Of a stretch of 32,000 nt of DNA, positions 1-18,400 are shown one piece after another (the first letter of the stretch is position 1; each line of letters starts with the position of its first letter). Where the stretch lies: assembly GCA_036009625.1 (NCBI GenBank), contig DASYLJ010000177.1:11501-43500 (forward strand). The letters are read 5' to 3'. Position numbers and translations under genes: made by a program. The stretch is from Candidatus Binatia bacterium. GTDB lineage: Bacteria > Desulfobacterota > Binatia > DP-6. The notes below the pieces were generated by a model. It was not told the DNA's origin. It made no database searches and was given only the letters and a program-made list of their open reading frames with translations.

Positions 1-1
1 C

Positions 2-559: not shown

Positions 560-581
560 GCCGTTGCAGTCTGGGAGGGGT

Positions 582-1202: not shown

Positions 1203-2128
1203 CGTTGCCCGTGACCTCCGACCTCCCGACGCTGCTGACGCGACTCCGCACCGAGGAGCGCGCGCGCCAGGCGGAGCTGGCGAGGCTCGAAGCGCGGCTG
1301 CGCGAGTTCGAGGACGTCGAACGCCAGGCGTATGCGCGATGGTTGCGGCACGAGCTGGGTCCGGTCCTCGCCATCCTCGAAGCACGCCGGGACGAGCTGC
1401 GTGCGCGTCGTGCCACGGCCGAGCGGGTGATGGCATTGGCCGACCAGGAAGGATGGCATCCGCGCGAAGCCCTCTACGTGGTGCTGAACCCACGTAGCGA
1501 GTCGCCACCTGCCCGCCGCGATCGCATGGACCCCGACGAGGTCGCAGCACGACGGCGTGCGAAGGTCGACCGCAAGCGTGCCGAGCGGAAAGCGGCGCGC
1601 CGGGCGACGCCGGATGCCGCCATGCCGGGTGACGGCGTCGCGGCATCGAGCGCCGCTCCACGCTCCCGACGCATCGCCGTCTACCGTGCCGTGGCACGCC
1701 GACTGCATCCGGACTCACCGACCGTCGTCCGTTTCCTCGATCCGTCGCGCGCGAAGGCGCTGTGGGTCGAAGCGACCATCGCGTATACCGCCGGCAACCT
1801 CGAGCGCCTGCTCTCCATCGCCGCCTGGCTCGACGCCTCGGAGGAAGGCGACGCCGACCCCATCGTCCCGTCCTCGCTGAGCGAGCGGTACGAGCGCCTG
1901 CGCGCGCTCACCCGTTCGACCCGCGCACTGGAACGCCGGCTAGAATCCCTGGCGGATGATCCGGCGTGGGAGTTCTCGCTCCGGACGCCGCGCGACCGGC
2001 GACGTCTGCGTGCGGCCGCCGCCCAGATGCTCGACGAGGAGATGGAGCTGGTCGACGCGGCGCTGGCCGCAGCCGCCGATTTTCTCGCCGCGATCGGATC
2101 GCCGCGTCCGCCACGCCGCTCACGCTGA
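1190..2128 (+). CDS. Hypothetical coiled-coil protein with a J-domain-like segment (HPD motif)
   Basis: 312-aa ORF with high GC3. The Arg/Glu-rich N-terminal half is predicted helical or coiled. The segment RRIAVYRAVARRLHPDSP...AKALWVEATIAYTAGN matches the J-domain helix II-HPD-helix III pattern. The start is ambiguous: GTG 1190, or GTG 1199 which gives a GTGA overlap with the upstream stop. Confidence 0.55.
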   Translation: MCAVTLPVTSDLPTLLTRLRTEERARQAELARLEARLREFEDVERQAYARWLRHELGPVLAILEARRDELRARRATAERVMALADQEGWHPREALYVVLNPRSESPPARRDRMDPDEVAARRRAKVDRKRAERKAARRATPDAAMPGDGVAASSAAPRSRRIAVYRAVARRLHPDSPTVVRFLDPSRAKALWVEATIAYTAGNLERLLSIAAWLDASEEGDADPIVPSSLSERYERLRALTRSTRALERRLESLADDPAWEFSLRTPRDRRRLRAAAAQMLDEEMELVDAALAAAADFLAAIGSPRPPRRSR

Positions 2129-2158
2129 CGTTCCGAGCCATCCGCGCGCGACGCCGGC

Positions 2159-3691: not shown

Positions 3692-3722
3692 CGGGCCCGA
3701 CTCTATGCCGCGGGTGTGCTCA

Positions 3723-3750
3723 TTCTCCAGCCCGTCTCCAGGTGCTCTCC
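3723..3750. promoter_or_regulatory. Three direct TCTCCA repeats phased at exactly 11 bp; candidate winged-helix regulator binding sites
   Basis: TCTCCA occurs at 3723-3728, 3734-3739 and 3745-3750, in the contexts tTCTCCAg, gTCTCCAg and cTCTCCAa. The repeats sit in the 144-bp divergent intergenic region between the regulator (start 3691, minus) and the tautomerase (start 3836, plus). A GGTGCT-N5-AGCACC hairpin overlaps at 3740-3756. Confidence 0.4.
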
Positions 3751-3835
3751 AAGCACCCGAGTCGGCTCGACGCTACGACTCTGGGCACGGTCGCCGGAAC
3801 GGTTCCCGACACCGAACCCGCAGAGGAGAGATGCC

Positions 3836-4060
3836 ATGCCGCTCATCACGATCGATGTGATCAAGGACGTCTTCACGCCGCGCCAGAAGCAGGACCTCAT
3901 CAACGCGGTCACCGAGGCGGCCATCGCCGTCGAAGGCGAGAGCCTCCGCCCGGTCACCTGGGTGCGGATCAACGAATTCGCGCAGGGCGACTGGGCCATC
4001 GGCGGCAAGCGTCTGGTGGCTGCGGACGTGCACGCGATGCAGGCGAGCAAGGTCGCCTGA
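3836..4060 (+). CDS. 4-oxalocrotonate tautomerase family protein
   Basis: A 74-aa product starting MPLITIDV (catalytic Pro1 after Met removal), of typical tautomerase length. GAGGAGAG SD at 3823-3830, 5 nt upstream of ATG 3836. The longer 3344 ORF upstream is antisense shadow of the regulator gene. Confidence 0.85.
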
Positions 4061-4085
4061 GGCCGTCGTGATGGCGCGAGCGAAG

Positions 4086-4107
4086 GGGGGGCGGCCTCGC
4101 GCCCCCC
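4086..4107. terminator. GC-rich hairpin between convergent genes (candidate bidirectional terminator)
   Basis: GGGGGGCG (4086-4093) pairs perfectly with CGCCCCCC (4100-4107) around a 6-nt loop, GCCTCG. Outer GCGAG/CTCGC pairing occurs at 4076-4080 and 4114-4118. The hairpin lies between the tautomerase stop (4060) and the TetR stop (4119). There is no U-tract, which is common in high-GC genomes. Confidence 0.5.
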
Positions 4108-4118
4108 GTGCGCCTCGC

Positions 4119-4790
4119 TCAGCGTCGCTTCGCCGGCACCCGCCGCAGGGTGCCAGCGTCCGCGGCGCCGACGCTGCGGCGGCAGAAGCGCACCAGCGTC
4201 GCGACGATCTCCTCCTCGGAGGTCATCTGCCCGGCGACGGGAGAGAGCGGGCCGACGAGGGCCTCGGCGATGGCCCCCACCAGGGCCGCGGCGCTGAACT
4301 CGACGTTCTGATCCGGGATCTCCCCGGCGGCGATCGCCTGCCGCAGCAGCGCTGCCATGTTCCGACAGTACGTCCGGCGATAGACGAGCCGTTCGGCGTC
4401 GACCAACGGATCGACGGGCTCGTGCAGCAGCGCCCAGGCCAGCCGTCGATGGCGCAGCGCGCCCCGGGCGTGCGCCGCCACGGCAGCCTCGAGGCGCGCG
4501 ATGCAGCTCTGCGACGACGCGGCCTCCTCCACGGCGGCGAGGTCGCGCCGGGCGGCATCGCGGAAGACGTCGACGAAGAGCTCGGCCTTGGAGGGAAAAT
4601 GGCGGTACATCGCTCCCGCCGCGACGCCGGTGCGGTCGGCGATGGCCTGGACGGATGCCGCCGCGTAGCCGCCCTCTTCGAGCAGCTCGCGCGCCGCGTC
4701 CACGAGACGTTGGCGCGTGGCGACCACCGGCTTGTCCGACGATCTGGCGACGCGTGACCGCAGCCGTGGCTTCGGCCGACGCGTCGTCAC
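4119..4790 (-). CDS. TetR/AcrR family transcriptional regulator
   Basis: The N-terminal HTH RQRLVDAARELLEEGGYAAASVQAIADRTGVAAGAMYRHFPSKAELF is the canonical TetR_N signature. GTG start at 4790 overlaps the upstream gene's stop (GTGA). Confidence 0.9.
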   Translation of the reverse strand: MTTRRPKPRLRSRVARSSDKPVVATRQRLVDAARELLEEGGYAAASVQAIADRTGVAAGAMYRHFPSKAELFVDVFRDAARRDLAAVEEAASSQSCIARLEAAVAAHARGALRHRRLAWALLHEPVDPLVDAERLVYRRTYCRNMAALLRQAIAAGEIPDQNVEFSAAALVGAIAEALVGPLSPVAGQMTSEEEIVATLVRFCRRSVGAADAGTLRRVPAKRR

Positions 4791-5929
4791 GCGGCGACTC
4801 CCGCGGCGTCGAGCTGCGCGTGCAGCGTGTGATGGAAGTGCACGATGGCGCTCTCGAAGCGCCCGAACGTGAAGGCCTCGTTGGCGCCGCTCGCGAGCCC
4901 GCGCTGCACGGCGCAGAGCACCTCCTGATCCTCGAGCGTGCCGGCGTCGACGAGCGCCGTCGCCTGCTCGATGAACGCCTGCGCCGGCGCGTCGCTGGGG
5001 TCGTGATCGCTCAGCATGTAGGTGACGAACCGCGTGCGGTCGACGGCGAGCGGCTCGAGCGCGACCATGAAGATGCGGCGCGGGAACGTCGCGACGATCG
5101 CGTTCGGGAAGAGATGGTAGACGTAGGTCAGCGTCCCGTCCGCGGATCGCTGCGCGGGGGCGAGCTCGCGCTGCTTCCTGATGGCGCGGAACGGGAACGC
5201 GATGCGGTTGTTGCGGCCGAAGCGCTCGACGACGTTCAGGTTGTCGAACTGGAGCGGGTAGAAGGTGTCGGGGTGGGTCGAGCGGATGTGGTAGCCCTCG
5301 AGGAACCCCTCGATGACGACCTTCCAGTTGGCCGCCACGTCGCGCTCGTTGACGGTGACGAACCGGAAGCCCGGGCCGACGAGCGCCGGCAGCGCGTCCA
5401 GCTCGGCGCCGGTGACGGCCGGCGTGTCCTGCGTCACGAACACGAGACCCTGGCGCTCGACGGCGTCGACCGGCACCAGGCCCATCGTCGTCGTGTCGAG
5501 GCCTGGAAAGCCGTGTGCGCCGGGAACGTGCCGGAGGCGTCCGTCGAGCTCGTAGGTCCAGCCGTGGTAGCGGCAGACGAGCGCGCGCTCGCAGCCAGTG
5601 CCCTCGACGACCTGCGTGCCACGGTGACGGCAGGCGTTGCGGAACGCGCGCACGCGACCGTCGTCACCGCGGACGGCGACGATCGGGGTTCCTGCCGCCT
5701 CACGCGCCACCCACGATCCAGACGCCGGAAGCGCCGCCGACGGGCAGAAGGGCGTCGGATAGCGGCGCAGCACCAGGTCGCGCTCCGCCGCGAAGCGCGT
5801 CTCGGAGCGGTAGTTGGCGACCGGCTCGGTCCACGTCGTATCGCCGAGGTCGGTGGTGCGGTTGTCGATGTGATCGAGGATGCGCTGAACGACCGTCGCA
5901 TCGTCGGCCAGCCGGCTCACCGTCGTCAT
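4787..5929 (-). CDS. Rieske [2Fe-2S] non-heme-iron oxygenase, alpha subunit-like (380 aa)
   Basis: Rieske motif CRHRG-x17-CRYHGW. Mononuclear iron motif NWKVVIEGFLEGYHIRSTH. The chosen start, ATG 5929 (MTTVSRL), has a GGAGG SD and an ATGA overlap with the upstream crotonase stop. The upstream 144 codons of the 524-aa ORF are Arg-rich shadow of the neighbouring gene. Confidence 0.9.
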   Translation of the reverse strand: MTTVSRLADDATVVQRILDHIDNRTTDLGDTTWTEPVANYRSETRFAAERDLVLRRYPTPFCPSAALPASGSWVAREAAGTPIVAVRGDDGRVRAFRNACRHRGTQVVEGTGCERALVCRYHGWTYELDGRLRHVPGAHGFPGLDTTTMGLVPVDAVERQGLVFVTQDTPAVTGAELDALPALVGPGFRFVTVNERDVAANWKVVIEGFLEGYHIRSTHPDTFYPLQFDNLNVVERFGRNNRIAFPFRAIRKQRELAPAQRSADGTLTYVYHLFPNAIVATFPRRIFMVALEPLAVDRTRFVTYMLSDHDPSDAPAQAFIEQATALVDAGTLEDQEVLCAVQRGLASGANEAFTFGRFESAIVHFHHTLHAQLDAAGVAA

Positions 5930-6705
5930 GACGCCTCCGATGTGTGGTCGCGCCAGCTGCCCGATGCATAGTGCTCGAGCCCGCCGAACAGCTCGCCGGT
6001 TTCGATCGTGGCCATGCCGTGGCGGTACTCGCCCGCCAGCGCCTCGTCGAGCCCGAGTGACCACTGCTCGTACGACGAGCGTCGATCGCTGCGGAGCGCC
6101 GCCTGCGGCCGGCTCGCGATCTCGCGCGCGAGGGCGATGGCCTCGGGCAAGGCGCGGCCGGGCGGCACGAGCCGGTTGGCGAGCCCCATCCGCTGCGCCT
6201 CCTCGCCCGAGACGCCACGTCCGGTGAGGATCAGATCGAGCGCGTGCGAATGGCCGAGCAGCCGCGGCAGTCGCACGGTGCCGCCGTCCATGAGCGGGAT
6301 GCCCCAGCGCCGGCAGTAGACGCCGAACACGGCGTCGTCGGCCGCGACGCGGAGGTCGCACCAGGCGGCCAGCTCGAGGCCGCCTGCGACCGCATGCCCT
6401 TCGATGGCGGCGATCACCGGCTTGCCGAGCAGCATCCGTGTCGGTCCGACGGGGCCGTCGCCGTCGGCCGCGACGCGGGTGATGGGCGTGCCGTCGCCGC
6501 TGCGCATCGCCTTCAGGTCGGCGCCGCAGCAGAACTTGGCGTTCGCACCGGTCAGGACTGCGACGTGGAGCGCCGGGTCGGCATCGAAGCGACGAAAGGC
6601 ATCGGCCAGCGCCTCGGCGGTGGGGCGATCGATGGCGTTCGCCACCTCGGGTCGGTCGAGCGTGACGACGACGATGGGGCCGGCGGGTTCGTAGTGGACG
6701 GGCAT
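5926..6705 (-). CDS. Enoyl-CoA hydratase/isomerase (crotonase) family protein
   Basis: IVVVTLDRPEVANAI...VLTGANAKFCCGADLK...KPVIAAIEGHAVAGGLELAAWCDLRVAA is the crotonase-fold oxyanion-hole pattern. GAGGAGG SD lies just upstream of ATG 6705. Confidence 0.9.
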   Translation of the reverse strand: MPVHYEPAGPIVVVTLDRPEVANAIDRPTAEALADAFRRFDADPALHVAVLTGANAKFCCGADLKAMRSGDGTPITRVAADGDGPVGPTRMLLGKPVIAAIEGHAVAGGLELAAWCDLRVAADDAVFGVYCRRWGIPLMDGGTVRLPRLLGHSHALDLILTGRGVSGEEAQRMGLANRLVPPGRALPEAIALAREIASRPQAALRSDRRSSYEQWSLGLDEALAGEYRHGMATIETGELFGGLEHYASGSWRDHTSEAS

Positions 6706-6727
6706 CGGAGCCTCCTCGGGTTGGCGT

Positions 6728-6766
6728 GTGAATCCACGTTCACGCTGGTAGTGAATCGGGATTCAC
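6728..6766. promoter_or_regulatory. Two 16-bp palindromic operator-like sites upstream of the crotonase-Rieske-TetR operon
   Basis: Site 1 is 6728-6743, GTGAATCCACGTTCAC (GTGAA-N6-TTCAC). Site 2 is 6751-6766, GTGAATCGGGATTCAC (perfect 7-nt arms, GTGAATC-GG-GATTCAC). The sites start 23 bp apart and lie 23-61 bp upstream of the operon's first start codon (6705, minus strand). Confidence 0.45.
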
Positions 6767-6792
6767 GAGTCAACGGGGGGCGGCGGGCGGCG

Positions 6793-8103
6793 CTATTCGG
6801 TGGACACCACGCCACACGCTCCGGATGGGCCGACGCGGAGGCTGGCGTGGATCGGCATCGCCGCTCCGAACCCGGTGCGGGGTGTCTTCAGCACCAGCTT
6901 CCGGAGGGCACCTTTCCGGATGGTCGCCCGCGCGATGGTGAAGGCCCCCACGGCGCTCTGTTGGAACTGGCCGCGGCCGACGCGGCGCCATGGCCCGGCG
7001 ATGACCTGGCAGCCGGCCTCCGCCGTCGAAATCACGACGGTGGTTTCGGCCGCGTCGAAGAGCACGCCGGGCGGTGGCCGCGCGACCACCGACAGGCGCA
7101 GGCCGTTGCGCCCATACGTCGCCGTACCGGTGATCGGCTCGGCGAGTGTGCAGCACGCCGGATCGTCCGCGTCGACCAACGCGTTGCCGTCATCGTCGAG
7201 GCAATTGTCGCAGGTTTCGGTGGGGGCCGACGTCGCCATCCCGCAGTTGCACGAACACGACGACGCGGTCGTGCCGTTGTCGGCGCCGTCGTCGCAGAGC
7301 TCGCCGAGATCGGTGTCGAGGAAGCCGTCACCGCAGGCGGCGCCGAGGCACGACTGCCCGGCGTGGATCGGTGCCCCGATGCCGATGATCGGTCCGGTCT
7401 GCTTCGTGAAGCCGAGCACGACGTCGTACTCGGCGCGGCTGCCGGTCGATGCGATCGGGTTCTGGTCGTAGCGCTCCGTGGGGGTGCACGGGAAAAGGCT
7501 GCAGTCGATGTCGGCGCCGCAGGTGCGGACGCCGTCCTCGCACACACCCGCGTCGCACGTCCGGTCGCATGCGAAATCGCCTTCGCACTCGGCGAACAGC
7601 CCCGTCGTTTCGGGGCGCTTGCAGGCGGTTCTCGACGTGGCCAGGCAGCTACCGTCGGCGCAGCCTTCGACGCCGAGCAGGCTGGCTATCTCGGAGGAGT
7701 AGAACTTGTATGCCAGCCACGACCCCTGGGGGAGATGGGTTCGAACGAGCTCGGTCTCGGTGAGGCCGGTGACGCCGTTCTCGCTGGACACGCACAGCTG
7801 CGCCGGTTGGTTGTTGTCATCGCAGGCCGGGTACTGCACCGTGGTTGCGACGTCGTTGCGCGAGCACAGGACGGCCCCTTCGGTGCGCAGGACCCAGCTG
7901 GCGGTGCTGCCGGCTGGACCGCAGGCGTCACCATGATCCGTCACGGTGAACGTGATGCGGGCCGAGCGGTCACCAAAGGTGCCGAAGCTGCGTTCCCCAG
8001 GTGGCGGCCCCCCCGCACGTGCGTTACCGCCGAGGACGACCAAGGCGCAGAGCAGCAAGGTGCCCAGGTGCATACGCCGCTGGAGCGGTTCGATGCCGCG
8101 CAT
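6793..8103 (-). CDS. Secreted cysteine-rich repeat protein (Myxococcus-type CGDG...CDDG repeat and metal-binding-like CxxCxDDD motif)
   Basis: Signal-peptide-like N-terminus MHLGTLLLCALVVLGGNARA; the alternative start is ATG 8073. There are more than 30 Cys residues. CGDGFLDTDLGELCDDGADNG matches the myxobacterial cysteine-rich repeat, and ETCDNCLDDDGNALVDADDPACC resembles the DDD-rich putative metal-binding repeat. High GC3. Confidence 0.7.
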   Translation of the reverse strand: MRGIEPLQRRMHLGTLLLCALVVLGGNARAGGPPPGERSFGTFGDRSARITFTVTDHGDACGPAGSTASWVLRTEGAVLCSRNDVATTVQYPACDDNNQPAQLCVSSENGVTGLTETELVRTHLPQGSWLAYKFYSSEIASLLGVEGCADGSCLATSRTACKRPETTGLFAECEGDFACDRTCDAGVCEDGVRTCGADIDCSLFPCTPTERYDQNPIASTGSRAEYDVVLGFTKQTGPIIGIGAPIHAGQSCLGAACGDGFLDTDLGELCDDGADNGTTASSCSCNCGMATSAPTETCDNCLDDDGNALVDADDPACCTLAEPITGTATYGRNGLRLSVVARPPPGVLFDAAETTVVISTAEAGCQVIAGPWRRVGRGQFQQSAVGAFTIARATIRKGALRKLVLKTPRTGFGAAMPIHASLRVGPSGACGVVSTE

Positions 8104-8155: not shown

Positions 8156-11100
8156 TCACCGTCGCGGGGCCAGCTCGCAGATACCCTCCCATGGCACGGA
8201 CGGGGGATCGTCGCGCAGCTGGCGGCATCGGTCACAGTAGAGCCGTACGGCAGGATCGTCGGGATAGTCCCGCGCCAGGCGCTCGAATCGCGCAAGGGCC
8301 TCGGCGAAATCACCCGCCAGGTACTCGGCTCGCGCACGCACGAAGTGATCCTCGAGACGGCGTAGTCGTCCGTCGAGATCGTCGCTGACCGTCCCCAGCA
8401 GCTCGTGGACGACCAGCGGCGCTTCGCGGTCGGTGATGCGCACGCGATCCAGCTCCCGAAAGACGAATTCGGAGCCGGCGCTGCGTCGGGTCGCGTCGCT
8501 GACGAGGATCGGAGATCCATGACAACGCAGACGCTGCAGCGTCGCGGCCATGTCGGCAGCGTCGCCGCGGGCCGTGAAATGAACGTCGAGCCCGTCGCCG
8601 AAGTTGCCGACCAGGGCGTGTCCCGATGCGATGGTGACGGGAAGCAGCGGCGCGCTCGCAGGGGCATCGTGGAGGAGGGCGAGTGCACCGCGGCAGGCGG
8701 CCGCGGCGTGGTCCGGACCCACCATGCGGTCGTCCCAGAACGCGGTCAGGCCCAGGCGAGTTCGGAGGTCCACGATGCCGCGGGCCGCGACCAGTGGGCG
8801 CTCCAGGGCATGGCGCGCCTCGTCGTCGAGGACGTCCACGGGGCCGGTCATCAGCACGGATGCGTCGGCATGCACGGGCGCCTTCGTGACGTCGGGAAGG
8901 ATCGTGTTGAACAGCTCGCTCGAGGCATCGATGCCGGTGTCGTCGCGCGCGAGACCGACTGCGGTGGCATCGGCGATGCGCGCCAGATGCGCCAGCTCCT
9001 GCGGGTCGTAGACCTCGCCGGAGCGGCGAACGCCGAGAACGATGAAACCGAGGAAGAGTGGTCCCTGGCGTAGCCCGAGGACGATCTCGCCGTGCAGCCG
9101 GGTGAGGACGTGCCGCTGCGACGGCGGAATGCGCATGGCCGCCAGGGTGCTCCAGCGGACCTGAAGGTCGGCGACGCCTGGAGCATGGTAGAGCACCGAC
9201 AGGATCGGATCGTCGAGCGACAGGGTGGATGGCGGGGCCCGGCGCCCCGGACGCCCCTGGGTGAACGCGGTCCGGAAGGTGGTGCCCTCGCGCACGTAGC
9301 CCGTGCATTCGGAGACTCCGATCAGCGTCATCAGACGCTCGCACGAGAGCCGCAGCACGTCGCGTGCGTCCCGACGCGTGGCGAGATCCGCGAGGAGCTC
9401 GTCGGTGGCCGTCGCGAGTCGCCGGCGTTCCGACCGGAAGAGGCGGTCGACCACGGGCACGATCACCCACGCACGCAGGACGAGGGCTCCGACCAGGAGG
9501 GCGACGGTCATGATGGTCGCGACCAGCCGTCGCAACGCCTCGCTGGCCTCGCCGGGGACGAGCTGCTCCACGGCAGCGCGGGTCACGTCCGGATAGACGA
9601 GCAGGCCGCCGCAGGCCACGACGAACAGCGTCGAGTACAGCATGGTGGTGCCGGCGAGGAGCCGATCGATGTCGAGCAGGTTTGCTCGCGTTACCGCGAC
9701 CAGAATCGACAGCGGAATGAGCGCCTCGCAGAGCATCAGGACGTCGTGGAGCCAGTACCATGCGGACCCTCCGATGCCGGCGACGGCGTTGGCGAGGGCG
9801 ACCGGGAGCAACGCGGCATAGAAGCCGAAGTAGATCCACTTGATCTGCAGGCGTCCGCGGGGATCGGCGTTCCGGTAGTTGCGCGTGATGAGCGCTAGGA
9901 TCGCGACCACGAACACGAGATTGACGACGTACATCCCGACGATGCCGAGCCACGTCGGAAGGGGGCCGCCGAGGACGTAGGTCAACACGAGCGGACCGAA
10001 CACGGCGAAGAGCCACGGCCAGTATTTCGGCGGGGGCGGCGCCGAGGATTCCGGCACCATGGCGATGGGGCGGACCAGAAGCGGAAAGACCAGTGTGGAG
10101 CTGACCGCGAAGACCGTGAGCCACATCCAGCTCATCGCCGGCGTCCCGCCGAAGAACCACAGCCAGTGCAGGGCCAGGAGCAATGCGCCGACGTAGACGG
10201 CCCGAGCGAATGCGGAGTGCGGTCGGCGCAGGAAGACGAACAGGCCGGTGAACACGTAGACGCCGGTCATGACGGGAAGGCGCCATGCGGATGCAACCGG
10301 GACGAAGGGAAGCTCGGTCACGAGTCGCGTGCCGCCGCGATCGATCAGGGCCGGCACGACGCCGGTGGGGGATCGCCAACGCTCGTCCTGTGCCGCGACG
10401 AAGACGTCGATACGACCGGCGCCGGCGAGGTCGGTGGTTCCGACCGACAGCAGGCGGTCGCCCGGCCTCGGCATGGTGTCGCTCGTCGCGGCCGTTCCCG
10501 GCCAGTACGCCTGGACGGTCGGATGGTCGGAAGAATCCGTTGCTGGTGTGACGTACACCCCGACCCATGCCAGGCCATGGTGGAGCATCTGTGCGCTCCA
10601 TGCGCCGACGGCGACGAGCCAGAGCAGGGCCAACGCGAGCATGGCGACCTCGCGCAGACCGAGGTCCCCGGCGCGATCGCGTGCGCCTGCGGTCCAACGA
10701 CGCCACGACGCGTCCTGGGCGGCGATCGGTGGTCGCGCGGGGGGCCATGGTCGATCGGAACGATGCGGATGGTCGCCCGGTGGGGTGGAGGCGGGCCGCT
10801 CGAGCGCGCGATCGAGGAGACGAATGCGGTCGGTGTCGACGGGACGCCGCGGAATGCCCAGCGCCTGCACGCCGGCGCGGATGGCCGGGAGCGTTTGCTC
10901 CAGAGACGCATGGGTCAGCCGGGTCGAGGTCGCGGCCCCCACCATGAATGCCACGTTGGGTGCCCGGCGCTTCAGATCGTCGTGGGTGATGTCGAGCAAC
11001 AGCGGAACGAGCGGCTTGCCGCCTTCCACGGCTGCGAGGAGCTCGCGATCGACCTGCGGCGAATGCAACGACCGTGGAGACAGGATCACCAGCAGGGCCG

Positions 11101-11263
11101 TGGACGCGGCGACCGCCCGTCGAACGCGTTCGACGTAGGAGGGCCCGGTCTCCGTGTCGACCTCGTAGATCCAGGTCGCATGACCGGCCACCTCGAGGTC
11201 GCGCGCGATGATGAGAGCGACGTCGGCATCTTCGGCCACGTGGCTTATGAAGATCGTGCTCAT
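8156..11263 (-). CDS. 1035-aa multidomain membrane protein: N-terminal TIR, PDZ-like loop, about 10 TM segments, GAF-like domain, catalytically degenerate class III cyclase-homology domain, TPR-like tail
   Basis: Domain coordinates are approximate.
- TIR (aa 1-135, nt 10859-11263): IFISHVAEDADVALIIARDLEVAGHATWIY...LLVILSPRSLHSPQVDRELLAA, with the conserved Glu at E74 (codon 11042-11044).
- PDZ-like (aa 235-320): ...PGDRLLSVGTTDL...
- Hydrophobic segments: aa 205-225 and nine more between aa 328 and 605.
- GAF-like (aa 620-775): ends ...GEIVLGLRQGPLFLGFIVLGVRRSGEVYDPQELAHLARIADATAVGL.
- Cyclase-like (aa 795-950, nt 8414-8881): ASVLMTGPVD replaces the xxVLFxDIVGFT metal-binding motif, and ARGDAADMAATLQ replaces GxxVNxAxRxE. 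The metal Asp and the Asn/Arg are therefore lost.
- C-terminal tail: YLAGDFAEALARFERLARDYPDDPAVRLYCDRC is typical of sequence downstream of bacterial cyclase domains. Confidence 0.85.
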   Translation of the reverse strand: MSTIFISHVAEDADVALIIARDLEVAGHATWIYEVDTETGPSYVERVRRAVAASTALLVILSPRSLHSPQVDRELLAAVEGGKPLVPLLLDITHDDLKRRAPNVAFMVGAATSTRLTHASLEQTLPAIRAGVQALGIPRRPVDTDRIRLLDRALERPASTPPGDHPHRSDRPWPPARPPIAAQDASWRRWTAGARDRAGDLGLREVAMLALALLWLVAVGAWSAQMLHHGLAWVGVYVTPATDSSDHPTVQAYWPGTAATSDTMPRPGDRLLSVGTTDLAGAGRIDVFVAAQDERWRSPTGVVPALIDRGGTRLVTELPFVPVASAWRLPVMTGVYVFTGLFVFLRRPHSAFARAVYVGALLLALHWLWFFGGTPAMSWMWLTVFAVSSTLVFPLLVRPIAMVPESSAPPPPKYWPWLFAVFGPLVLTYVLGGPLPTWLGIVGMYVVNLVFVVAILALITRNYRNADPRGRLQIKWIYFGFYAALLPVALANAVAGIGGSAWYWLHDVLMLCEALIPLSILVAVTRANLLDIDRLLAGTTMLYSTLFVVACGGLLVYPDVTRAAVEQLVPGEASEALRRLVATIMTVALLVGALVLRAWVIVPVVDRLFRSERRRLATATDELLADLATRRDARDVLRLSCERLMTLIGVSECTGYVREGTTFRTAFTQGRPGRRAPPSTLSLDDPILSVLYHAPGVADLQVRWSTLAAMRIPPSQRHVLTRLHGEIVLGLRQGPLFLGFIVLGVRRSGEVYDPQELAHLARIADATAVGLARDDTGIDASSELFNTILPDVTKAPVHADASVLMTGPVDVLDDEARHALERPLVAARGIVDLRTRLGLTAFWDDRMVGPDHAAAACRGALALLHDAPASAPLLPVTIASGHALVGNFGDGLDVHFTARGDAADMAATLQRLRCHGSPILVSDATRRSAGSEFVFRELDRVRITDREAPLVVHELLGTVSDDLDGRLRRLEDHFVRARAEYLAGDFAEALARFERLARDYPDDPAVRLYCDRCRQLRDDPPSVPWEGICELAPRR

Positions 11264-11297: not shown

Positions 11298-12755
11298 TCA
11301 CCTCGCCAGGCGCGTCATGCGGATCGTGAGGAGCACGGCGAGCGCGAGTGCTATGGCGAGCGGGGTGTCGCCGGTGCGTTGATAGACGGTGGTTCCGTCG
11401 AGGGGGACGATCATGGCGTTCAGGACGTCGGGTCGACCGAAGCTGCTCGTGCGAGACAGTCGCCCCTGCGGGTCGATGACGGCCGAATACCCCGTGGTGG
11501 CCGCGCGGAGCAGCCATCGCCGCGACTCGATGGCGCGAAACGACGCGATCTCGAGATGGTGGCGTGCCGCCGCCTCGCTTCCGAACCACGAGTCGTTGGA
11601 GAGGTTCAGGAGCAGCTGTGCGCCCCCGGCAACGGTTTCGCGGACCAGCTCGGGATACATGGCCTCGAAGCACAGGAAGATGCCGAGTCGCCCGGCCCTG
11701 GACGTCAGCACGCCTGACTCCACACCGCCGGTATAGTGCGTCGTGCCCGTGGTTTCGGCGAAGGGCACGAGCCGACGCTTGTCGTATCGTCCAGCGAGGT
11801 CACCGTCGCGGACCAGAAAGACCGAGTTGTGATAGACGGTGCCGGCGGTGTCGGTGAATGCGTAATGCGGTGCGCCGAGAACGAGATCGCTTCCGAATCG
11901 GCGCGATCCATCGAGGAGCTCTTCGCGCTCGCGCGAAGCCTCCTGCGGGTAGAAGCTGACGGCATACTCGGGCCAGACGATGAGTGCCGGCGGCGCCGTG
12001 CTGGTGCTCGAGAGCGCCAGATGCTCCGCGAGGCCGACGCGCTGATACTCCGGGAGCCAGTGCAGTCCGCGACCGACGCCGGCCTGCACGACCATCACCG
12101 GCACGTCGGGCGTGGGCGCCGGCCGCGTCAGCTGCCAGCGTCCGTACACGATCGTCGCGACGACGGCGCATCCCACCGCGGCTGTCGACCAGCGCTGGCG
12201 GCGTCCGCGGAGATCCGGAACGAACCTCGATGCCACCAGCGCGTTGACGGCTGCCACCAGCATGCCGCCGGCGTACGGACCGGCGAGATCGGCGGTCTGC
12301 GTCAGGGTGGGCCAGTGTACCAGCGCGTACCCCGAGAGGACCCAGGGGTCGCCGCCGAAGGCGCGGGCACGGACCAGCTCGTATCCTGCCCACGCGAGGG
12401 CCACGCGTCCGGGGGAGGCCACGCCGGCGCGCGCCATCCAACCGACCGCGGCGCCGAAGGCCGCGCAATAGATGCCGGCGTGGGCCATGCCGATGACGGG
12501 TAGGCTGAGCCACCCGATCCACGCGGGTTGCTCGAAGTAGACAGAGATCATGCCTGGGAACCACGTGCCCGTCTCCACGCCGATCGCGGTTCCCCAGAGG
12601 AGGCCGAGCAGGGCGCCCCGCAGGGGGCCGTGGCGGGTGAGAGCGACCAGGAAGGGGATCAACGCGACCCAGATCAGCGGCGTGAACGACCATGGCGGAA
12701 AGCAGGCCGCGTACAACGTGGCGGAGGTCAGGACGAGGAGGGCGGAGACCAGCAC
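11298..12755 (-). CDS. lnt: Apolipoprotein N-acyltransferase
   Basis: Polytopic N-terminal half plus a CN-hydrolase domain with the Glu-Lys-Cys triad contexts IVWPEYAV, YDKRRLVPFAE and LGIFLCFEAMYPE. The Lnt-typical LLLNLSNDSWFG is also present. GTG start at 12755. Confidence 0.9.
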   Translation of the reverse strand: MLVSALLVLTSATLYAACFPPWSFTPLIWVALIPFLVALTRHGPLRGALLGLLWGTAIGVETGTWFPGMISVYFEQPAWIGWLSLPVIGMAHAGIYCAAFGAAVGWMARAGVASPGRVALAWAGYELVRARAFGGDPWVLSGYALVHWPTLTQTADLAGPYAGGMLVAAVNALVASRFVPDLRGRRQRWSTAAVGCAVVATIVYGRWQLTRPAPTPDVPVMVVQAGVGRGLHWLPEYQRVGLAEHLALSSTSTAPPALIVWPEYAVSFYPQEASREREELLDGSRRFGSDLVLGAPHYAFTDTAGTVYHNSVFLVRDGDLAGRYDKRRLVPFAETTGTTHYTGGVESGVLTSRAGRLGIFLCFEAMYPELVRETVAGGAQLLLNLSNDSWFGSEAAARHHLEIASFRAIESRRWLLRAATTGYSAVIDPQGRLSRTSSFGRPDVLNAMIVPLDGTTVYQRTGDTPLAIALALAVLLTIRMTRLAR

Positions 12756-12833: not shown

Positions 12834-15428
12834 CTACACGATCTTGCGCACCCGGAATCCTGCCCGCTCGACGAGCAATGGAAGGTCCCGGATGGTGTTG
12901 CGATCCCTGACCTTGTCGGGCTCGGTGAGCAGGTCCCAGGGTATCAGGAGCGGGTGATGCTTGCGGGCGTCGTCGCGCTTGGGGGCGAAGGTCCAGCCGC
13001 TTCTTCGACGTTCAGCCATCCAGCGATCGTGCTCGCGCATCGCGAGCATCTCGATGTCGGCGTCGGTGATGATGATCTCCGACGGGCGCATGCCGTGGCT
13101 AGGAGCGAGCTCATACCCGAGGAGACGGAGCTTGTCTGGAATGTCCGCCACGTTGGCGCGGTTCGCATGCCGGAGATCCTCGGTCAGATCCTCCCAGGGG
13201 CGCATCGACCTGTTGGTGAGCGGAGTATCGCCGCGCATCCGGGATTCCGCGCAGTAGCTGTCGTGCTGCGCTCTCGCCAGGTCCTCGAGTGCGAGCACGC
13301 GTTGCGGGACGACGCGGTAGATGCGGTAGCGGCCCGGATAGCCCTTCGCGAGCGGAATCGTGCCCCCGTACTCGCACACGAATCCCTCGTCGCCCGCCGT
13401 GTCGTGACCGATGCCGGCCGACTGCCGCCGGCGCTCGATCTCGGCGCCGAGCTCCGCGAGCGCGGCGAACTCCTCACTCGCGAAGACCTCGCCAGGTCTG
13501 GTCACCGGTTCGATGCGCGCCGCCCGGTTCACGTGCGACCCGGTGAACCCGAGCCGTCGAACGACCGGGTCGTAGTGCATGACGACCGGACCGGCGTGGA
13601 GCCCGGTGCGGATGTTCAAGGGATGCTTCTCCCCATCGAGCTCCCAGTAGAGGCCCAGCGCGAGCCACTCGTCCCGACCTTCCTGCACCAGCTGGGCGAG
13701 CTCCAACGCGAACAGACCAGCGTCACGCGCGAAATCGAACACCGCGTAGATCGCGTCACCCCAGGTGTTGACGCTGCACGGCGCGTGCTTGCTCGTCGCG
13801 ATCAGCTGGGCGACGCGCCCGAGGAAGGCGCCGACGAACTCGGGGACCACCTTTTCGGTGAGCTTGCTGTAGCCGACGATGTCGGCGAACAGCATGCTCT
13901 TCACTTCCTGGTGCATGCTCGATCGCTCGCACCTACGGACCCACGGTTCGTGGGTGCCGACGCTGTCGTGGTCCACCGGCACGGCCGGTGGCTGGACGAT
14001 GATCGGCTGCTCCTGCAGCTGCCCGTGCCAGAACCAGTAGGTGGAATCCGTTCCGCCCGCGCCGCGGCCGGGGAACCCGTTCCAGAAGACCATGGGCTGG
14101 ATGTCGAGCCGTGATGCCCGCGCCGTGTAGAGGGCGATGCCCGCACTGACCTCCACCATGTATTCCCAGCCCACGTCGCTGCTGGGCTCGTAGACCTGAC
14201 CGATTTCGCGGATGGTGGCCGCGCCATCGATCGCGCGCTCGAACAGGGGCTGCCAGACCGGCGGGCCGGGCAGATCGAACGGCTCGATGCTGGTGCGACG
14301 GAACTCCTCCTTCGACCATGGGAGGACGAGGTGGACCGTCCCCCCACGTGCCAGCAGGGCCTCGGCGAACAGGAGATCGGCACCAGCGCACGCGCTCACG
14401 AGACCGACTCTCGCTTGCAGGGTGTCGAGCTGCTTGCGGAGCGACTCACGCGCGCCCTCGATTGATTCCGGTGGAAACCGCACGCGCTCGCCCGGACGAT
14501 CGGGAAGATGGCCGGCGAAGACGATGAGCTGCAGCGGCGGGAATGCGGACTTGAACAGATCGCGCGGCTGGCCGAGCGCCTCGGCCAGGAATTGCGCCCA
14601 GTAGCGCCGCTCGGCGAGCTGCGCCGTGGTGACGTTCTCGATGGTCTGCAGCAGCTCGTAGTGCCTCGTGGCCGCCTGCACGTCGCCGAGCACGGTGAGC
14701 GCGGTGGCGCGCGCCCATGTCGTGTCCAGACTCGGGCCCTCGTCGTCCTCGCGCGCATTCACGCGGGTGACGACGTCCCGCGCCTTGCTCCGCGCCTCGT
14801 CGCGGAGGGCAGATCCTTCCTCGCCGAGGACGAACGCGGCGGCGGCGGTGAGGACGAGGGCGTCGAGCTGCGTTGGGTCGAGTGCCAACGCACGCTGGTA
14901 GAACCCCAGCGCCTGCTCCGCCGTTCGGACGTAGGTGGCCTTCGCCGCCACGTGCTGCGATTCTTCACGGAGGATGTCGCCCAGCTGCAGGAGGATCGCG
15001 AACTGCATGCGCCGGCCCAAGACCGGTCGGGAGCGGGGATCCAGACACGGCTCGATCACGCTCCGTGCGTCTCGCGTCAGGCCGAGTCGCGTGAGGGCGG
15101 ACGCGTAGTCCATCCGGACTCGGACGAGCTCGGTGGGATCGTTCTGATCGGCCGGGTCGAGGCGGAGAATCTCGCGCGCAGCATCCCATACGAGGAGGAA
15201 CTCCTCCTGCGCGAGCGCATGGCGCGTGAACAGCCGCGCGAGCGCGATGTCCTGCTGCAACCAGGCAATCTGCGGCGCGGGTCGTCCCACCCCGTCGGCC
15301 TTCTTGCGCTGATCCGGGTCCGGTACCGGTTGCCGCTGCGCCCAGATCGCGTGCAGATCGCGTACCGAGACTCTGTCCGACCGGAGAAGGCTCTCGACGT
15401 CGCCGACGTGCTCGAAGCTCATGACCAT
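12834..15428 (-). CDS. 864-aa multidomain protein: TPR-like N-terminus, SLOG/DprA-LOG-like Rossmann domain, intact class III nucleotide cyclase domain with non-canonical specificity residues, two C-terminal RyR repeats
   Basis: Domain coordinates are approximate.
- TPR-like helical repeats: aa 55-295.
- SLOG-like (aa 298-470, nt 14019-14537): LIVFAGH...VGLVSACAGADLLFAEALLARGGTVHLVLPW (DprA-like Gly-rich motif) and GFPGRGAGGTDSTYW (LOG-like GGxGT motif).
- Cyclase (aa 505-705, nt 13314-13916): MLFADIVGYS (metal Asp D516, codon 13881-13883), NTWGDAIYAVF (D558), IRTGLHAGPVV, GSHVNRAARIE (N634, R638). Asn554 (codon 13767-13769) sits where adenylyl cyclases have Lys, and Gly627 where they have Asp.
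- RyR repeats (aa 712-860): LARAQHDSYCAE...RPWEDLTEDLRHANRANVADIPDKLRLLGYEL and LAMREHDRWMAERRRSGWTF...HHPLLIPWDLLTEPDKVRDRNTIRDLPLLVERAGFRV. Confidence 0.85.
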   Translation of the reverse strand: MVMSFEHVGDVESLLRSDRVSVRDLHAIWAQRQPVPDPDQRKKADGVGRPAPQIAWLQQDIALARLFTRHALAQEEFLLVWDAAREILRLDPADQNDPTELVRVRMDYASALTRLGLTRDARSVIEPCLDPRSRPVLGRRMQFAILLQLGDILREESQHVAAKATYVRTAEQALGFYQRALALDPTQLDALVLTAAAAFVLGEEGSALRDEARSKARDVVTRVNAREDDEGPSLDTTWARATALTVLGDVQAATRHYELLQTIENVTTAQLAERRYWAQFLAEALGQPRDLFKSAFPPLQLIVFAGHLPDRPGERVRFPPESIEGARESLRKQLDTLQARVGLVSACAGADLLFAEALLARGGTVHLVLPWSKEEFRRTSIEPFDLPGPPVWQPLFERAIDGAATIREIGQVYEPSSDVGWEYMVEVSAGIALYTARASRLDIQPMVFWNGFPGRGAGGTDSTYWFWHGQLQEQPIIVQPPAVPVDHDSVGTHEPWVRRCERSSMHQEVKSMLFADIVGYSKLTEKVVPEFVGAFLGRVAQLIATSKHAPCSVNTWGDAIYAVFDFARDAGLFALELAQLVQEGRDEWLALGLYWELDGEKHPLNIRTGLHAGPVVMHYDPVVRRLGFTGSHVNRAARIEPVTRPGEVFASEEFAALAELGAEIERRRQSAGIGHDTAGDEGFVCEYGGTIPLAKGYPGRYRIYRVVPQRVLALEDLARAQHDSYCAESRMRGDTPLTNRSMRPWEDLTEDLRHANRANVADIPDKLRLLGYELAPSHGMRPSEIIITDADIEMLAMREHDRWMAERRRSGWTFAPKRDDARKHHPLLIPWDLLTEPDKVRDRNTIRDLPLLVERAGFRVRKIV

Positions 15429-15497: not shown

Positions 15498-18400
15498 TCA
15501 GCCGCGGCGACGCTGGCGTGGACGACCCCGGCGAGGGGTGGCCGCGTGCCGTCGTCCGGGTGTCCTGCCGATGTCCGCCTCGAAGAATCGGAAGAACGGA
15601 TTGCCATAGTGCTGATAGGCGCCCCACGTGCGTACGCCGTAGGCCAGTTTCCCGACGACCCGGCGGGCTTCACGCATGGCCTCGTGCATGGCCTCGGGCG
15701 GCTCGACGTCGGCTGTGTTGGCAGGGGTTCCCTCCACGTCGAGACCGAGGAGGCCACCGTAGAGCCGCCGCGCGAACGCGCGCGCGGCCATGTCGTCGAC
15801 GGGCCACGCCGTGCAGACGAAGTTCGCGACGCCGCGCGCGAAGAACGCCTCGGCGAAGCTCGGCGCGAGGGTGGCGTTCCTCAGCTCGGAGCGATCCGGG
15901 GTGATGCCGGACTCGCACGCATTCGAGAACACGAACTTGGGGATGCGGTCGATACGGTTCAGCTCGCGTGCGCTCAGGGTCTTGCCGCCGGAGAAGATCC
16001 AGCCCGATGCAGGCGGATTCGTCTCGTCGTAGAAGCAGTGGCCCGCGAAGTGCAGCACGTCCCAGGCGCTCCCCATGAGCTCTTCCAGCACACGGGCACG
16101 CGTTGCCTCGCTCGGGCCGAAGAGCCGCACGACCTCGGCGCGGTTCTCGTGCCGACCCTGCGCGGCCGCGTTGAAGCGCTCGAAGAGCTCCGCGACGGCG
16201 ATGCCTTCTTCCTCTGCGCCCGGGAGGTGTGCCTCGGCCGCGGGATCGGCCACGATGAGCACCCGGAGGGTCCGCCGGGGTGGTGGCGGTGGCTCGGGCG
16301 GTGGGGCGAAGGCCGTCCGAAGCTGGCGCGTGAGGCCACCCGCCGTCCCGAAGAATCGATCGAACTCGTCGGTCGCGATCGGCGACGCCGGCAGCGGGGT
16401 TCCAGGAGGCGCATCGAGATCGGGGCGGGTGACGAGCTCCCAGTGAATCGCCGCGGCCTTCGTGTCGAGCAGCATCACCAGTGGAGCATTACCGCGCAAT
16501 CGCTCGCGGAAATCGGCCGGGAACATGAAGCGACCGAGGTTGCCTCCGTGCCACTCCTGCTGCTTGACGTCGGTCACCGTCACTAGCGACTCGTTGATCT
16601 CGCCGACCAGTGTCGAGTCGAGGTCGATCTCGCGCTCTGGGACCGAGGCGGTCTCGGTCAACGCACCATAGCGGTACTTGTCGTGCTCGAACGTCAGGGT
16701 GATGCGTGTGGGCGGCGGGTCCGTTCGCGGGGATGCCTCGGCGCTCCGCCGGGCCTTCTCCTGCTTGCGGTCCCAGGCGATGGCCTGCCGGTTCAGACGT
16801 TTCGTCTGCTCGGGTGTGAGTGGGGCGTAGCGCAGCGTGAACGGCGCGCCGTCGTCGTGGTCGCGCTGCTCGTCCGCCAGCGCGCGATCGATCTCGGCGA
16901 CGCGATGGGGATCGAACTCGACGAACGTGATGCGCTGGAGCCGCCGCCGTGTGTCGCTGCTCGACCCCGTGAGTGCGTACCGGAGACCACGTACCCATGC
17001 CTGCACGGCCGCGCGCACGGGCAGGTTCCCGTTGCCCGAACCGATCAGCACGGTCGCGAGGTGCTGCTTGCCGAGACGCCCGAGGGCCCAGGCGAGCTCG
17101 CGGACGAGGACCACCAACTCGGGACTGCCGAACCGCGCCGGAACACCGAGCCCGGCAACGGCGAGCACGCGTTCCGGGGACCGTCGGCGCCCGACCCGCT
17201 GGCGAGGATCGGGCAGGAGAAACGGCGTACCCAGCTCTCCCCGCAGCACGCCGCGATCCGTGTACTGGGTGAGCAACAGGTCGGCCGTCCCGACGTCCCG
17301 CGACGAGACGGTGGCGCGCCGGCCGGGCAGTACGGCGCTGATGGCGCGATCGAGCGCCAGCTCGGCTGCCTGCGGGCGCACGCCGAGGTAGTGCCCGACG
17401 GCGACGGCATCGACCGGAAGGCGGCGGCCCCCCAGCTCGTGGGCCCCGTCGATGCTTCCGAGCTGGACGTCGACCTGCACCGAAACCATCGTTTGCGGGC
17501 GCGCGGTCATCGAGCCCGGCGCCGGTCGGGCGGAGGACGGGCTGCCGCCCAGGAAACCGCGAACCACGATGTCCTCGCTGAGGCGCTCCTCGGGAGCGAG
17601 GTAGGTGCGCTCGACCTCTCCCACGCGTGAGCGCGCGCGCATCCGACGCGTGAGCTCCGTGAGCTCCTGTTCCTCGTTCGCTGCGCGCTCGTGCAGGGCG
17701 TGCAGGTCCGCCCGTGTCACCCGCCCGCGCGCGCGGCGCGGAATCGTGGTGCCGAGCGAGCTCGTGCGGCCGTCCTTCAAGAGGTCGTCCAGGGCGGTGA
17801 GGACCGCGTCGTTCATGGGGAGACTGCCGTGCTCGGCCTCGACGTAGTACGTCGGGACGTCCCGCCCGTTCGCGGTGCGTAGCAGTCCCAGGTCGTGGGT
17901 TACGCGTCCATCCCCATCACGGGTCCATAGGTAGGCGCCCTCGTCGCGAAACTTCGACGGATCACGGAGGCCTGCCAGGGTGAGCTGATTGCACCCTGCG
18001 ACGTAGATCATGCGGTCGGGATCGACCACGTTCTGGAGTGCGACGTGTTGTCGCGCGGCGGCCTCGAGATGCTCTCGCCAGATGTCGAGCCCATAGGTGG
18101 AGGCATCGTAGAGGGGTTGCATCGACGGCACCGCGATCGGTGACGGCAGCATCTGCAGAAGCCCGGGAAAAGACGCGATGATGCTGCACACGTCCTTCAC
18201 GCCGTGGTGGAGGTCGACCAATGCGAGTTTCCGCACGAGGGGTTCGATGCCCGCGATCACCTGCGGCACGACGAAGGCCCCGTGGTTCGGCGTGCCGAGC
18301 ATCACGAGTCGCCCGCCTGCCATGCGCCGCCACAGCTGGTCGTGGTTCAGGATGAAGGTGCGTGCGACCAGTCCTCCCATCGAGTGGGCGACGAGATGCA

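Follow-up and report, generated by a model that had tools for sequence, protein, structure and literature searches.

A polytopic TIR-domain protein with a degenerate cyclase domain, encoded beside lnt in a Candidatus Binatia bacterium, and the membrane sensor family to which it belongs

The gene described here lies at 8156..11263, on the minus strand, of a 32 kb stretch of DNA from a Candidatus Binatia bacterium (the window; 32 000 nucleotides, positions 11 501 to 43 500 of contig DASYLJ010000177.1). It encodes a protein of 1035 amino acids (aa) which resembles a receptor-type membrane cyclase with an exchanged output and can be classed as a putative sensor-regulated TIR protein that carries a pseudo-enzyme domain. 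From N- to C-terminus the protein consists of a TIR_2 domain, a Pro-rich linker, a first transmembrane helix (TM1), a PDZ-like domain, nine further transmembrane (TM) helices, a GAF domain, a degenerate class III cyclase domain and a TPR-like tail. The part that runs from TM1 through the PDZ-like domain and the nine helices to the GAF domain (TM1-PDZ-9TM-GAF) is a widespread input module, as yet without a name, which in relatives controls a C-terminal catalytic output. We would give about an even chance to the explanation that the protein is a membrane receptor for envelope or lipoprotein status whose enzymatic output is now the TIR domain, the dead cyclase domain and the tail being kept as a scaffold. 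The DNA had been the subject of a sequence-only reading, which is followed up here by profile, homologue, model and neighbourhood analyses.

Results

The window has a G+C content of about 70 %, and codon-position G+C picks out the open reading frame (ORF) 8156..11263 (0.83 at third and 0.51 at second codon positions), whose product is identical to the NCBI entry 'MAG TPA: TIR domain-containing protein [Candidatus Binatia bacterium]'. The sequence-only reading had assigned to this ORF a TIR domain, a membrane part, a GAF-like domain and a dead cyclase domain, and that observation was confirmed. Direct scans of the 1035 aa protein with Pfam, NCBIfam and PADLOC gave nothing beyond the TIR domain and a weak TPR match, and the domains other than TIR were identified via homologues and structural models. 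A scan of the genome contigs returned one locus, matched in its TIR part only, and a promoter and terminator scan at the locus gave nothing informative.

When 1.84 billion representatives were searched exhaustively with HMMER, 191 of them were returned at E <= 1e-30 (word-indexed homologue searches gave few family members, with 4, 31 and 26 matches), and because nearly all match aa ~205–775 only, TM1-PDZ-9TM-GAF can be regarded as a self-standing sensor module. The Binatia protein has the whole of it, with collinear homology over aa ~205–775 and the loops TRNYR..GRxQxKW and RxNLxDxDRL. Outputs were counted in the best 150 of the 191 representatives, the 58 non-cyclase members being scanned with Pfam. 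A class III cyclase follows the module in about 94 of the 150, a His kinase in about 12 (some with a receiver domain), a Ser/Thr kinase in six or seven, a Trypsin_2 domain in five (C-terminal by motif in four) and a C-terminal TIR_2 domain, placed directly after GAF, in three (P0068, P0083 and P0132, each with W-x-x-x-E); more distant branches have PP2C phosphatase, GGDEF or sigma-54 activator outputs. At locus L022, tandem trypsin-domain genes of 806 and 794 aa (2564-4984 and 5001-7385, plus strand), the second of which encodes the sensor-trypsin protein P0094, lie near Fic/MazE-like genes and an integrase gene, with no lnt nearby.

The full architecture of the Binatia protein is shared by two other representatives only, P0033 and P0034 (36–38 % identity), each of which is a single-sequence cluster, and the form with an N-terminal TIR domain (N-TIR) and a dead cyclase thus amounts to three clusters among ~15 billion proteins. 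Taken together with the members that carry a C-terminal TIR domain, it implies that TIR has been recruited as the output of the module at least twice, in two ways. The nearest relative without a TIR domain, P0035, shares the sensor and the tail and has kept its cyclase intact. In the soluble protein P0164, which has no membrane sensor, the same TIR subtype is combined with that tail and a cyclase that is largely intact, which indicates that TIR, cyclase and tail are linked independently of the membrane part. The searchable literature held no description of the architecture or of the sensor module, in agreement with the earlier impression that such an architecture had not been described.

The domain that follows the module, a degenerate class III cyclase-homology domain (aa 777–957; 8393..8935, on the minus strand as are all features of the gene given below), was delimited by alignment and with a hidden Markov model (HMM) of the family cyclases, a profile of 81 cyclase domains from the same sensor family. 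By BLASTP this region is 37 % identical to P0035 over 203 aa (E 1.9e-27), and Pfam Guanylate_cyc (PF00211) gave no match at E <= 1 in the 1035 aa protein. The two metal-binding Asp residues, present in 81 and 80 of the 81 family cyclases, are replaced by Gly (MTGP in place of FxDI) and Leu (RLG in place of GDG), while the transition-state Asn (80/81) and Arg (81/81) are replaced by Asp and Thr (GDAADMAATLQ); the substrate-specifying Lys/Glu position is also replaced. Both N-TIR orthologues, P0033 and P0034, are likewise without the cyclase catalytic residues and show the same Asn-to-Asp change. Since the defining catalytic residues are missing, the domain is not a functional class III cyclase and, judged by these residues, is catalytically dead. 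The loss of the cyclase motifs reported in the sequence-only reading therefore stands, but its picture of an N-terminal half that is merely mutated does not: that half is barely recognizable, and the family profile matches the C-terminal half alone (aa 873–954, E 1.3e-10).

The active cyclases of the sensor family (n=81) have Glu at the position of the adenylate-cyclase Lys in 73/81 and Ser or Thr at the second specificity position in 71/81, and these specificity positions hint that most of them make cGMP rather than cAMP. P0035 and P0164 have Lys at the first of the two positions; at the second, P0035 alone has Asp and P0164 has Thr.

Conservation among the three orthologues is distributed unevenly along the protein. 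The most conserved region is the tail (aa 958–1035; 8159..8392), with 40–51 % identity, followed by the TIR domain (37–44 %), the nine-helix bundle (37–40 %) and the C-terminal half of the cyclase domain (34–38 %). Among the structured parts, conservation is lowest in the N-terminal half of the cyclase domain (19–26 %, with insertions and deletions); in all three orthologues this half is shorter than in the active cyclases, here by ~14 residues and in P0033 by ~20 more. This half is the one that would bind nucleotide and metal, and its decay weakens the earlier proposal that the dead cyclase domain serves as a nucleotide receptor. Rather, conservation of the C-terminal half and the tail together with poor conservation of the N-terminal half is in keeping with a cyclase remnant that acts as a scaffold. 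The tail, made up of the last 78 residues, had been overlooked in the sequence-only reading; it is TPR-like (TPR_14, E 1.3e-5, when scanned alone), ends in DPPxxxWxG and is also found after the cyclase domains of P0035, P0164 and P0186.

At the other end of the protein, the TIR domain (aa 1–135; 10859..11263) lies on the cytoplasmic side and was identified by Pfam TIR_2 and by sequence matches in the Protein Data Bank (PDB). TIR_2 (PF13676) matches aa 4–97 with E 3.7e-17 and 63.4 bits against a cut-off of 28; the NCBIfam and PADLOC matches are at domain level only. Among solved structures the closest are those of bacterial TIR proteins (7uxr, 7uwg (AbTIR), 3h16, 8g83, 4c7m and 4lzp), one of the nearest having been deposited as 'NAD(+) hydrolase AbTIR'. 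The candidate catalytic Glu, E74, which had been singled out before, is aligned with the motif Glu of W-x-x-x-E-L (W-T-N-Y-E-L) in AbTIR chain 7uwg, which we take to be the AbTIR catalytic residue E208. This Glu is kept in all three N-TIR orthologues, in P0164 and in related TIR-TM proteins and, given also the bacterial TIR relatives, the domain looks functional; it has stayed under constraint in a lineage whose original output is dead. A Pro/Arg-rich linker (aa 136–205; 10649..10858), probably flexible as judged from a predicted local distance difference test (pLDDT) score of <50, joins the TIR domain to TM1; its identity among the three orthologues is 18–27 %, with many gaps.

The same TIR subtype often forms the N-terminus of single-pass membrane proteins, in which a linker of ~90 aa and a single TM helix lead to an extracytoplasmic domain that varies and may be a PQQ beta-propeller, PPC, DUF4384 or TPR. 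Genes of this TIR-linker-TM kind are found at L001 2-1540, L006 6150-8483 and 9872-11920, L009 10784-12034 and L010 9145-11301, and the arrangement is reminiscent of an inverted Toll-like receptor. In L001, from a Gemmatimonadales metagenome-assembled genome, an ORF of 1179 aa (1550-5089, plus strand) begins 10 nt after the TIR-TM-DUF4384 gene; its product, read by eye, has WD40-type repeats and a caspase-like His/Cys dyad.

Transmembrane helices were assigned from hydropathy and two AlphaFold2 (AF2) models, which agree. TM1 (aa 206–226; 10586..10648), with a hydropathy of 2.17, a helix in the AF2 models and five Lys and Arg residues in the preceding loop, leads from inside to outside. It is followed by the periplasmic PDZ-like domain (aa 229–326; 10286..10579) and by the nine-helix membrane bundle (aa 328–604; 9452..10282), which is defined by hydropathy, AF2 helices and conserved columns in 150 relatives and has conserved cytoplasmic loops, TRNYR..GR.Q.KW and R.NLLDIDRL. 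Loops assigned to the inside contain 18 Lys and Arg in 86 residues and those assigned to the outside 3 in 40, a bias according to which the TIR and C-terminal domains are cytoplasmic and the PDZ-like domain is on the outer side. Hydropathy, AF2 and the positive-inside count thus concur with the ten hydrophobic segments and the sidedness proposed before, and the TIR domain is placed inside the cell by all of this evidence.

Neither Pfam nor NCBIfam matches the nine-helix bundle. Foldseek against the PDB gave no significant match for the membrane part (best E 0.02), and the faint resemblance to seven-helix (7TM) rhodopsin and G-protein-coupled receptor folds (TM-score ~0.5, E 0.03–0.1) is a hint only. 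Pfam gives no direct match to the PDZ-like domain either. This domain is beta-rich in the AF2 model (pLDDT 82–96) and carries a bacterial PDZ signature, PG...GL..GD.LL.VG, seen here as the motif PGDRLLSVGTTDL at aa 267–279. The best PDB folds for the model are PDZ domains, matched weakly (TM-score 0.5–0.64, E 0.02–0.2), with 4amh at 0.64 (E 0.02) and the PDZ domain of Mycobacterium tuberculosis HtrA among them, and more distant relatives of the module give clear Pfam PDZ, PDZ_2 or PDZ_6 matches; P0003 has a PDZ match at E 0.007. Homologues and fold match together are consistent with the PDZ-like stretch that had been proposed after TM1.

The last element of the module comprises a cytoplasmic signalling helix and the GAF domain (aa 605–776; 8936..9451; AF2 pLDDT 74–93). 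Here too Pfam gives no direct match, but the proposal of a GAF-like domain is well founded: the confident part of the model (aa ~630–775) matches the solved GAF domains 3oov, 3trc, 3eea and 4g3v by Foldseek with TM-scores of 0.65–0.71 (best 3oov, 0.71, E 1e-4), and aligned homologues carry Pfam GAF or GAF_2. The GAF domain is constant in relatives of the module that have a cyclase, kinase or protease of their own, and since it does not vary with the output, a role as transducer is likelier than one as a ligand sensor specific to TIR. The suggestion that it is a special nucleotide receptor for the TIR domain is weakened accordingly.

Immediately upstream of the receptor gene, on the same strand, lies lnt (11298..12755; Pfam LNT_N and CN_hydrolase), encoding apolipoprotein N-acyltransferase, and 34 nt separate its stop codon from the ATG of the receptor gene. 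An lnt gene adjoins the sensor gene in eight of the 12 loci with readable flanks, five further loci being too short to judge, and does so in varied orientations. In the window it is upstream and co-directional; beside the gene for P0033 (L002, lnt 3-1574) it is divergent and beside that for P0034 (L005, lnt 9421-10980) convergent. On the contig of the cyclase P0003 the order is lnt, a gene for a 215 aa protein and sensor, an order repeated for the cyclase P0036 (L023, where lnt, at 3-587, is cut by the contig end), and the sensor gene precedes lnt for P0035 (L017, lnt 3788-5287) and for the C-terminal TIR proteins P0083 (L019, lnt 2897-4477) and P0132 (L021, lnt 3623-5128, with a 4 nt overlap). 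lnt is the sole constant neighbour, and is so across dead cyclase/N-TIR, cyclase and C-terminal TIR outputs; other neighbours vary by locus. As lnt occurs about once per genome, adjacency in eight of 12 loci is far beyond chance, and it is most simply read as a functional connection of the sensor module with lipoprotein N-acylation or the envelope. This suggests that what the family senses is the envelope or the maturation of lipoproteins, and the coupling of envelope status to NAD chemistry raised in the sequence-only reading gains support from it.

The protein encoded between lnt and the sensor gene in two cyclase-type loci, of 213–215 aa (L023 545-1186, plus strand; P0003 contig 3538-4185), has a signal peptide and a small Cys cluster and is matched by no Pfam family. 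It was considered as a cryptic TIR protein and rejected as such, being a secreted Cys-containing protein with no TIR similarity; it may act in the periplasm as a ligand of the sensor or as its partner.

The receptor gene belongs to a co-directional run on the minus strand, with short gaps, of genes for an M3 peptidase, an SDR protein, a caspase (C14), a CHAT/lipase-like protein, a cyclase-RyR protein, Lnt, the TIR receptor, a Cys-rich secreted protein and an enoyl-CoA hydratase; the remainder of the window consists of metabolic genes. The cyclase-RyR protein (12834..15428, minus strand; 864 aa) is a candidate partner. It has a weakly TPR- or TPR-S-like N-terminal region, a domain of ~190 aa to which no family is assigned, a class III cyclase (Guanylate_cyc, E 9e-10) and a RyR domain (E 1.3e-15), and with all of the catalytic residues D, D, N and R present its cyclase is apparently active. 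The ~190 aa domain has the motif FxGHxxDRP...RFP...GADxLxAEAxLxxGGxVHxVLP and is matched in neither Pfam nor the PDB. At L021, where lnt and the C-terminal-TIR sensor gene lie, the gene beside them (5191-6408, minus strand) encodes a homologue of the partner with the ~190 aa domain and a cyclase (30 % identity over 414 aa, E 2e-48), and a short fragment at L019 (338-469; 62 aa, E 5e-5), just upstream of the sensor gene, also matches the partner. The partner cyclase is thus found at two or three of six TIR-output loci against none of four non-TIR-output loci, although the numbers are small.

RyR proteins also occur near other members of the TIR subfamily, at L002 (9895-10746, plus strand; RyR and TPR-S), L006 (210-2942, minus strand; AAA and RyR) and L009 (12506-15301, plus strand; RelA_SpoT, TPR-S, LSDAT (SLOG) and RyR), and there may be a bacterial TIR–RyR association in which the partners carry domains annotated as nucleotide sensors.

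Three other genes of the run were weighed as partners and rejected, none of them being found beside the orthologues. The stand-alone caspase gene (18933-19757, minus strand) is followed at a distance of 6 nt by the gene for a 1142 aa protein with an LCAT/DUF7379 lipase-like and a CHAT protease domain (15498-18926, minus strand), and the absence of this pair beside the orthologues makes it probably an independent module of cell-death type. The Cys-rich protein (6793-8103, minus strand; 436 aa), encoded 52 nt downstream of the TIR gene, has a hydrophobic N-terminal segment and CDDG-type repeats and no Pfam match; a weak match to it lies ~9 kb away in L005, so that it is not a conserved neighbour.

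Discussion

The architecture and the lnt linkage described above can be brought together in a model in which the core of the protein (aa 205–776, comprising TM1, the PDZ-like domain, the nine helices, the signalling helix and the GAF domain) would be the input part of a probably dimeric inner-membrane receptor. As the sensor gene usually lies beside lnt, the cue is probably lipoprotein maturation or the state of the envelope. In this lineage the cyclase output would have lost its activity and the cytoplasmic N-terminus would have gained a TIR domain whose Glu is intact, and with the cyclase dead the TIR domain is the most likely enzymatic output. We envisage that a periplasmic or membrane signal would alter the conformation or association of the receptor and so permit TIR–TIR association, possibly by releasing the TIR domain from the C-terminal half of the dead cyclase and the TPR-like tail, and that NAD+ cleavage would then be switched on, giving an ADP-ribose-type signal or NAD+ depletion. 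The C-terminal cyclase half and the tail would most plausibly be a scaffold for dimerisation or docking. Cyclases and kinases act as dimers, and the active sites of TIR enzymes form between TIR domains; by analogy, receptor-driven association would be expected to switch on NAD+ cleavage. SARM1 is an autoinhibited TIR NAD+ hydrolase (NADase), and the principle proposed here, in which another part of the protein restrains the TIR domain until a signal frees it, would resemble it; SARM1, however, has ARM and SAM domains, which the TIR receptor lacks, and autoinhibition of the latter is an analogy only.

Several points weigh against this model and have to be set beside it. The Trp at position −4 from the Glu in AbTIR-type enzymes is replaced by Gln, and NADase activity is inferred from the conserved Glu and family membership. 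Because ~70 poorly conserved linker residues separate the TIR domain from the sensor, tight conformational coupling between the two is not obvious, and in the full-length AF2 model, where the alignment is shallow over the TIR domain and the cyclase remnant, both have low confidence and docking of TIR to the tail is not assessable. As to the cue, lnt is absent from four of the 12 readable loci, namely L022 (trypsin), L011 (PP2C), L024 (Ser/Thr kinase, with the sensor gene beside an IS66 transposase) and L007, the lnt adjacency could partly reflect the shared ancestry of related, uncultured genomes, and a ligand is known for no member of the sensor module family.

When compared with known systems, the TIR domain most resembles those of AbTIR, TcpB (BtpA) and PdTIR, which provide its best structural matches and have in common with it the FISHxxED start and the xxxEL Glu. 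These proteins, however, are soluble and have a coiled coil or no extra domains, whereas here TIR, lacking the Trp, heads a ten-helix membrane receptor. Toll-like and interleukin-1 receptors offer a likeness of plan that is an analogy only, since they too would sense outside the cytoplasm, cross the membrane and have a TIR domain inside that is activated by association; they sense through leucine-rich repeats or immunoglobulin domains, and the present protein differs from them in its N-terminal TIR, its ten helices, its PDZ-like domain and its retention of the enzymatic Glu. The parent family is closer to the receptor-type membrane class III adenylate cyclases represented by Rv1625c, in which the membrane anchor is reported to serve as the receptor (PMC4821796). 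These likewise combine a polytopic receptor, a cytoplasmic transducer and a dimeric cyclase. The parent family differs in having 1+9 helices, a periplasmic PDZ-like domain and a GAF transducer, in matching no Pfam or NCBIfam family and, in the present protein, in its dead cyclase. Inactive cyclase domains of prokaryotic conflict systems, found alongside TIR-type effectors, were described by Kaur, Burroughs, Iyer & Aravind (2020; PMC7159879) and provide a precedent for a non-catalytic cyclase-homology domain in a multidomain protein; those systems are vWA-MoxR/VMAP ternary systems, and no vWA, MoxR or STAND protein was found among the scanned genes of the window. The protein is not a component of Thoeris, as a ThsA-type partner is absent: the ThsB matches are weak (E 0.0015–0.04), and neither SIR2 nor Macro was present among the 20 window ORFs scanned with Pfam.

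A relationship to Pycsar deserves closer consideration, since the protein shares with the cyclic nucleotide (cNMP)-activated TIR effectors (PycTIR, and 'PucsarTIR' of a preprint) a TIR domain joined to a regulatory domain and a class III-like cyclase gene nearby. According to this explanation, which we hold to be unlikely, cyclic nucleotide made by the neighbouring protein (12834-15428) or by other cyclases would bind the GAF domain or the dead cyclase and gate a TIR NADase, the membrane part being mainly an anchor. The gene for the neighbouring, apparently active cyclase is the second one upstream, in the same orientation, its homologue and fragment accompany C-terminal-TIR sensors (L021, E 2e-48, and L019) and none was detected in the four loci with non-TIR outputs. 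Proteins with cNMP-binding domains or of the Crp family are encoded near both orthologues, an MscS-type channel with a cNMP-binding domain at L002 (4560-6275, minus strand; near the P0033 gene) and, near the P0034 gene at L005, a Crp-family regulator (3539-4309, minus strand) and an NDH2-like oxidoreductase with a cNMP-binding domain (1-1545, plus strand). GAF domains of some proteins bind cNMP. Inactive cyclase domains may, as Kaur et al. (2020; PMC7159879) suggest, merely bind nucleotide. However, the nucleotide-binding half of the remnant is poorly conserved and in P0033 further shortened, and the GAF domain is a constant element in relatives with their own outputs. The cNMP_binding family (PF00027) was not matched at E <= 1, so that the protein is not a Pycsar effector; its regulatory part is a membrane sensor common to ordinary cyclases and kinases, and this is conserved as much as the TIR domain, contrary to what is expected of a mere anchor. 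Moreover, Pycsar is a two-gene defence operon, whereas here the cyclase gene lies beyond lnt, its product has additional TPR-like, ~190 aa and RyR domains, and its match to PADLOC PycC is weak and generic (E 8.6e-6). What survives of a nucleotide-gated TIR domain is therefore a version mediated by GAF, kept alive by the recurring cyclase and cNMP-binding genes, and to this too we assign a low probability; gating through the dead cyclase has lost ground.

Two other explanations, both of which seem to us improbable, concern the TIR domain itself and the purpose of the system. The TIR domain may not be an enzyme at all but an adaptor or regulator of the former cyclase, so that the protein would be a scaffold or a dominant-negative partner of active sensor-cyclases, with which the dead cyclase domain could heterodimerise. 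Many TIR domains act as scaffolds (survey PMC7075850), and P0164, which pairs the same TIR domain with a largely intact cyclase, indicates that TIR may originally have regulated the cyclase. On the other hand, the catalytic Glu is kept in every examined member of the TIR subgroup, and within the 32 kb window there is neither a second TIR gene to be recruited nor any paralogous sensor-cyclase gene that we could see. Equally doubtful in our estimation is phage defence by abortive infection, in which the membrane module would sense phage damage to the envelope and the TIR domain would kill by NAD+ depletion. The PADLOC matches of the TIR domain to Aga TIR, SAVED-TIR and ThsB (again at domain level), the nearby caspase and CHAT genes and the occurrence among the outputs of the sensor family of trypsin-like and TIR domains, which are typical effector domains, would agree with such a role, but housekeeping and metabolic genes surround the locus, caspase and CHAT genes do not recur beside the orthologues, most members of the sensor family are ordinary cyclases or kinases, and a search of a plasmid collection with the sensor region gave no match. 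We therefore continue to favour an envelope or lipoprotein receptor with a TIR output. A bolder form of it, which we put forward with little confidence, would make the PDZ-9TM-GAF family a general envelope and lipoprotein sensor, its TIR-output members analogues of Toll-like receptors in which a cue from outside the cytoplasm would bring the TIR domains together, and the adjacent cyclase-RyR protein a reader of the resulting NAD+-derived signal that relays it as a cyclic nucleotide. Two messengers would then act in succession between the envelope and cNMP effectors.

To our knowledge, the bacterial TIR enzymes studied so far are activated within the cell, by phage proteins, nucleotide messengers or STAND and Argonaute partners. 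A polytopic TIR receptor with a periplasmic domain, if this is what the protein is, would allow a cue beyond the cytoplasm to feed into NAD+-derived signalling, combining the logic of Toll-like receptors with an enzymatic TIR domain. The analysis also exposes a sizeable unannotated sensor family of ~190 representative clusters, in which an evolutionary series leads from active cyclase to TIR output and the three orthologues offer a natural example of an enzyme domain that became a pseudo-enzyme on the gain of a new output domain. Finally, its tight linkage to lnt suggests a surveillance of lipoprotein maturation that has not been recognized before, and opens the question of how a Gram-negative-type cell notices that the acylation of its lipoproteins is failing.

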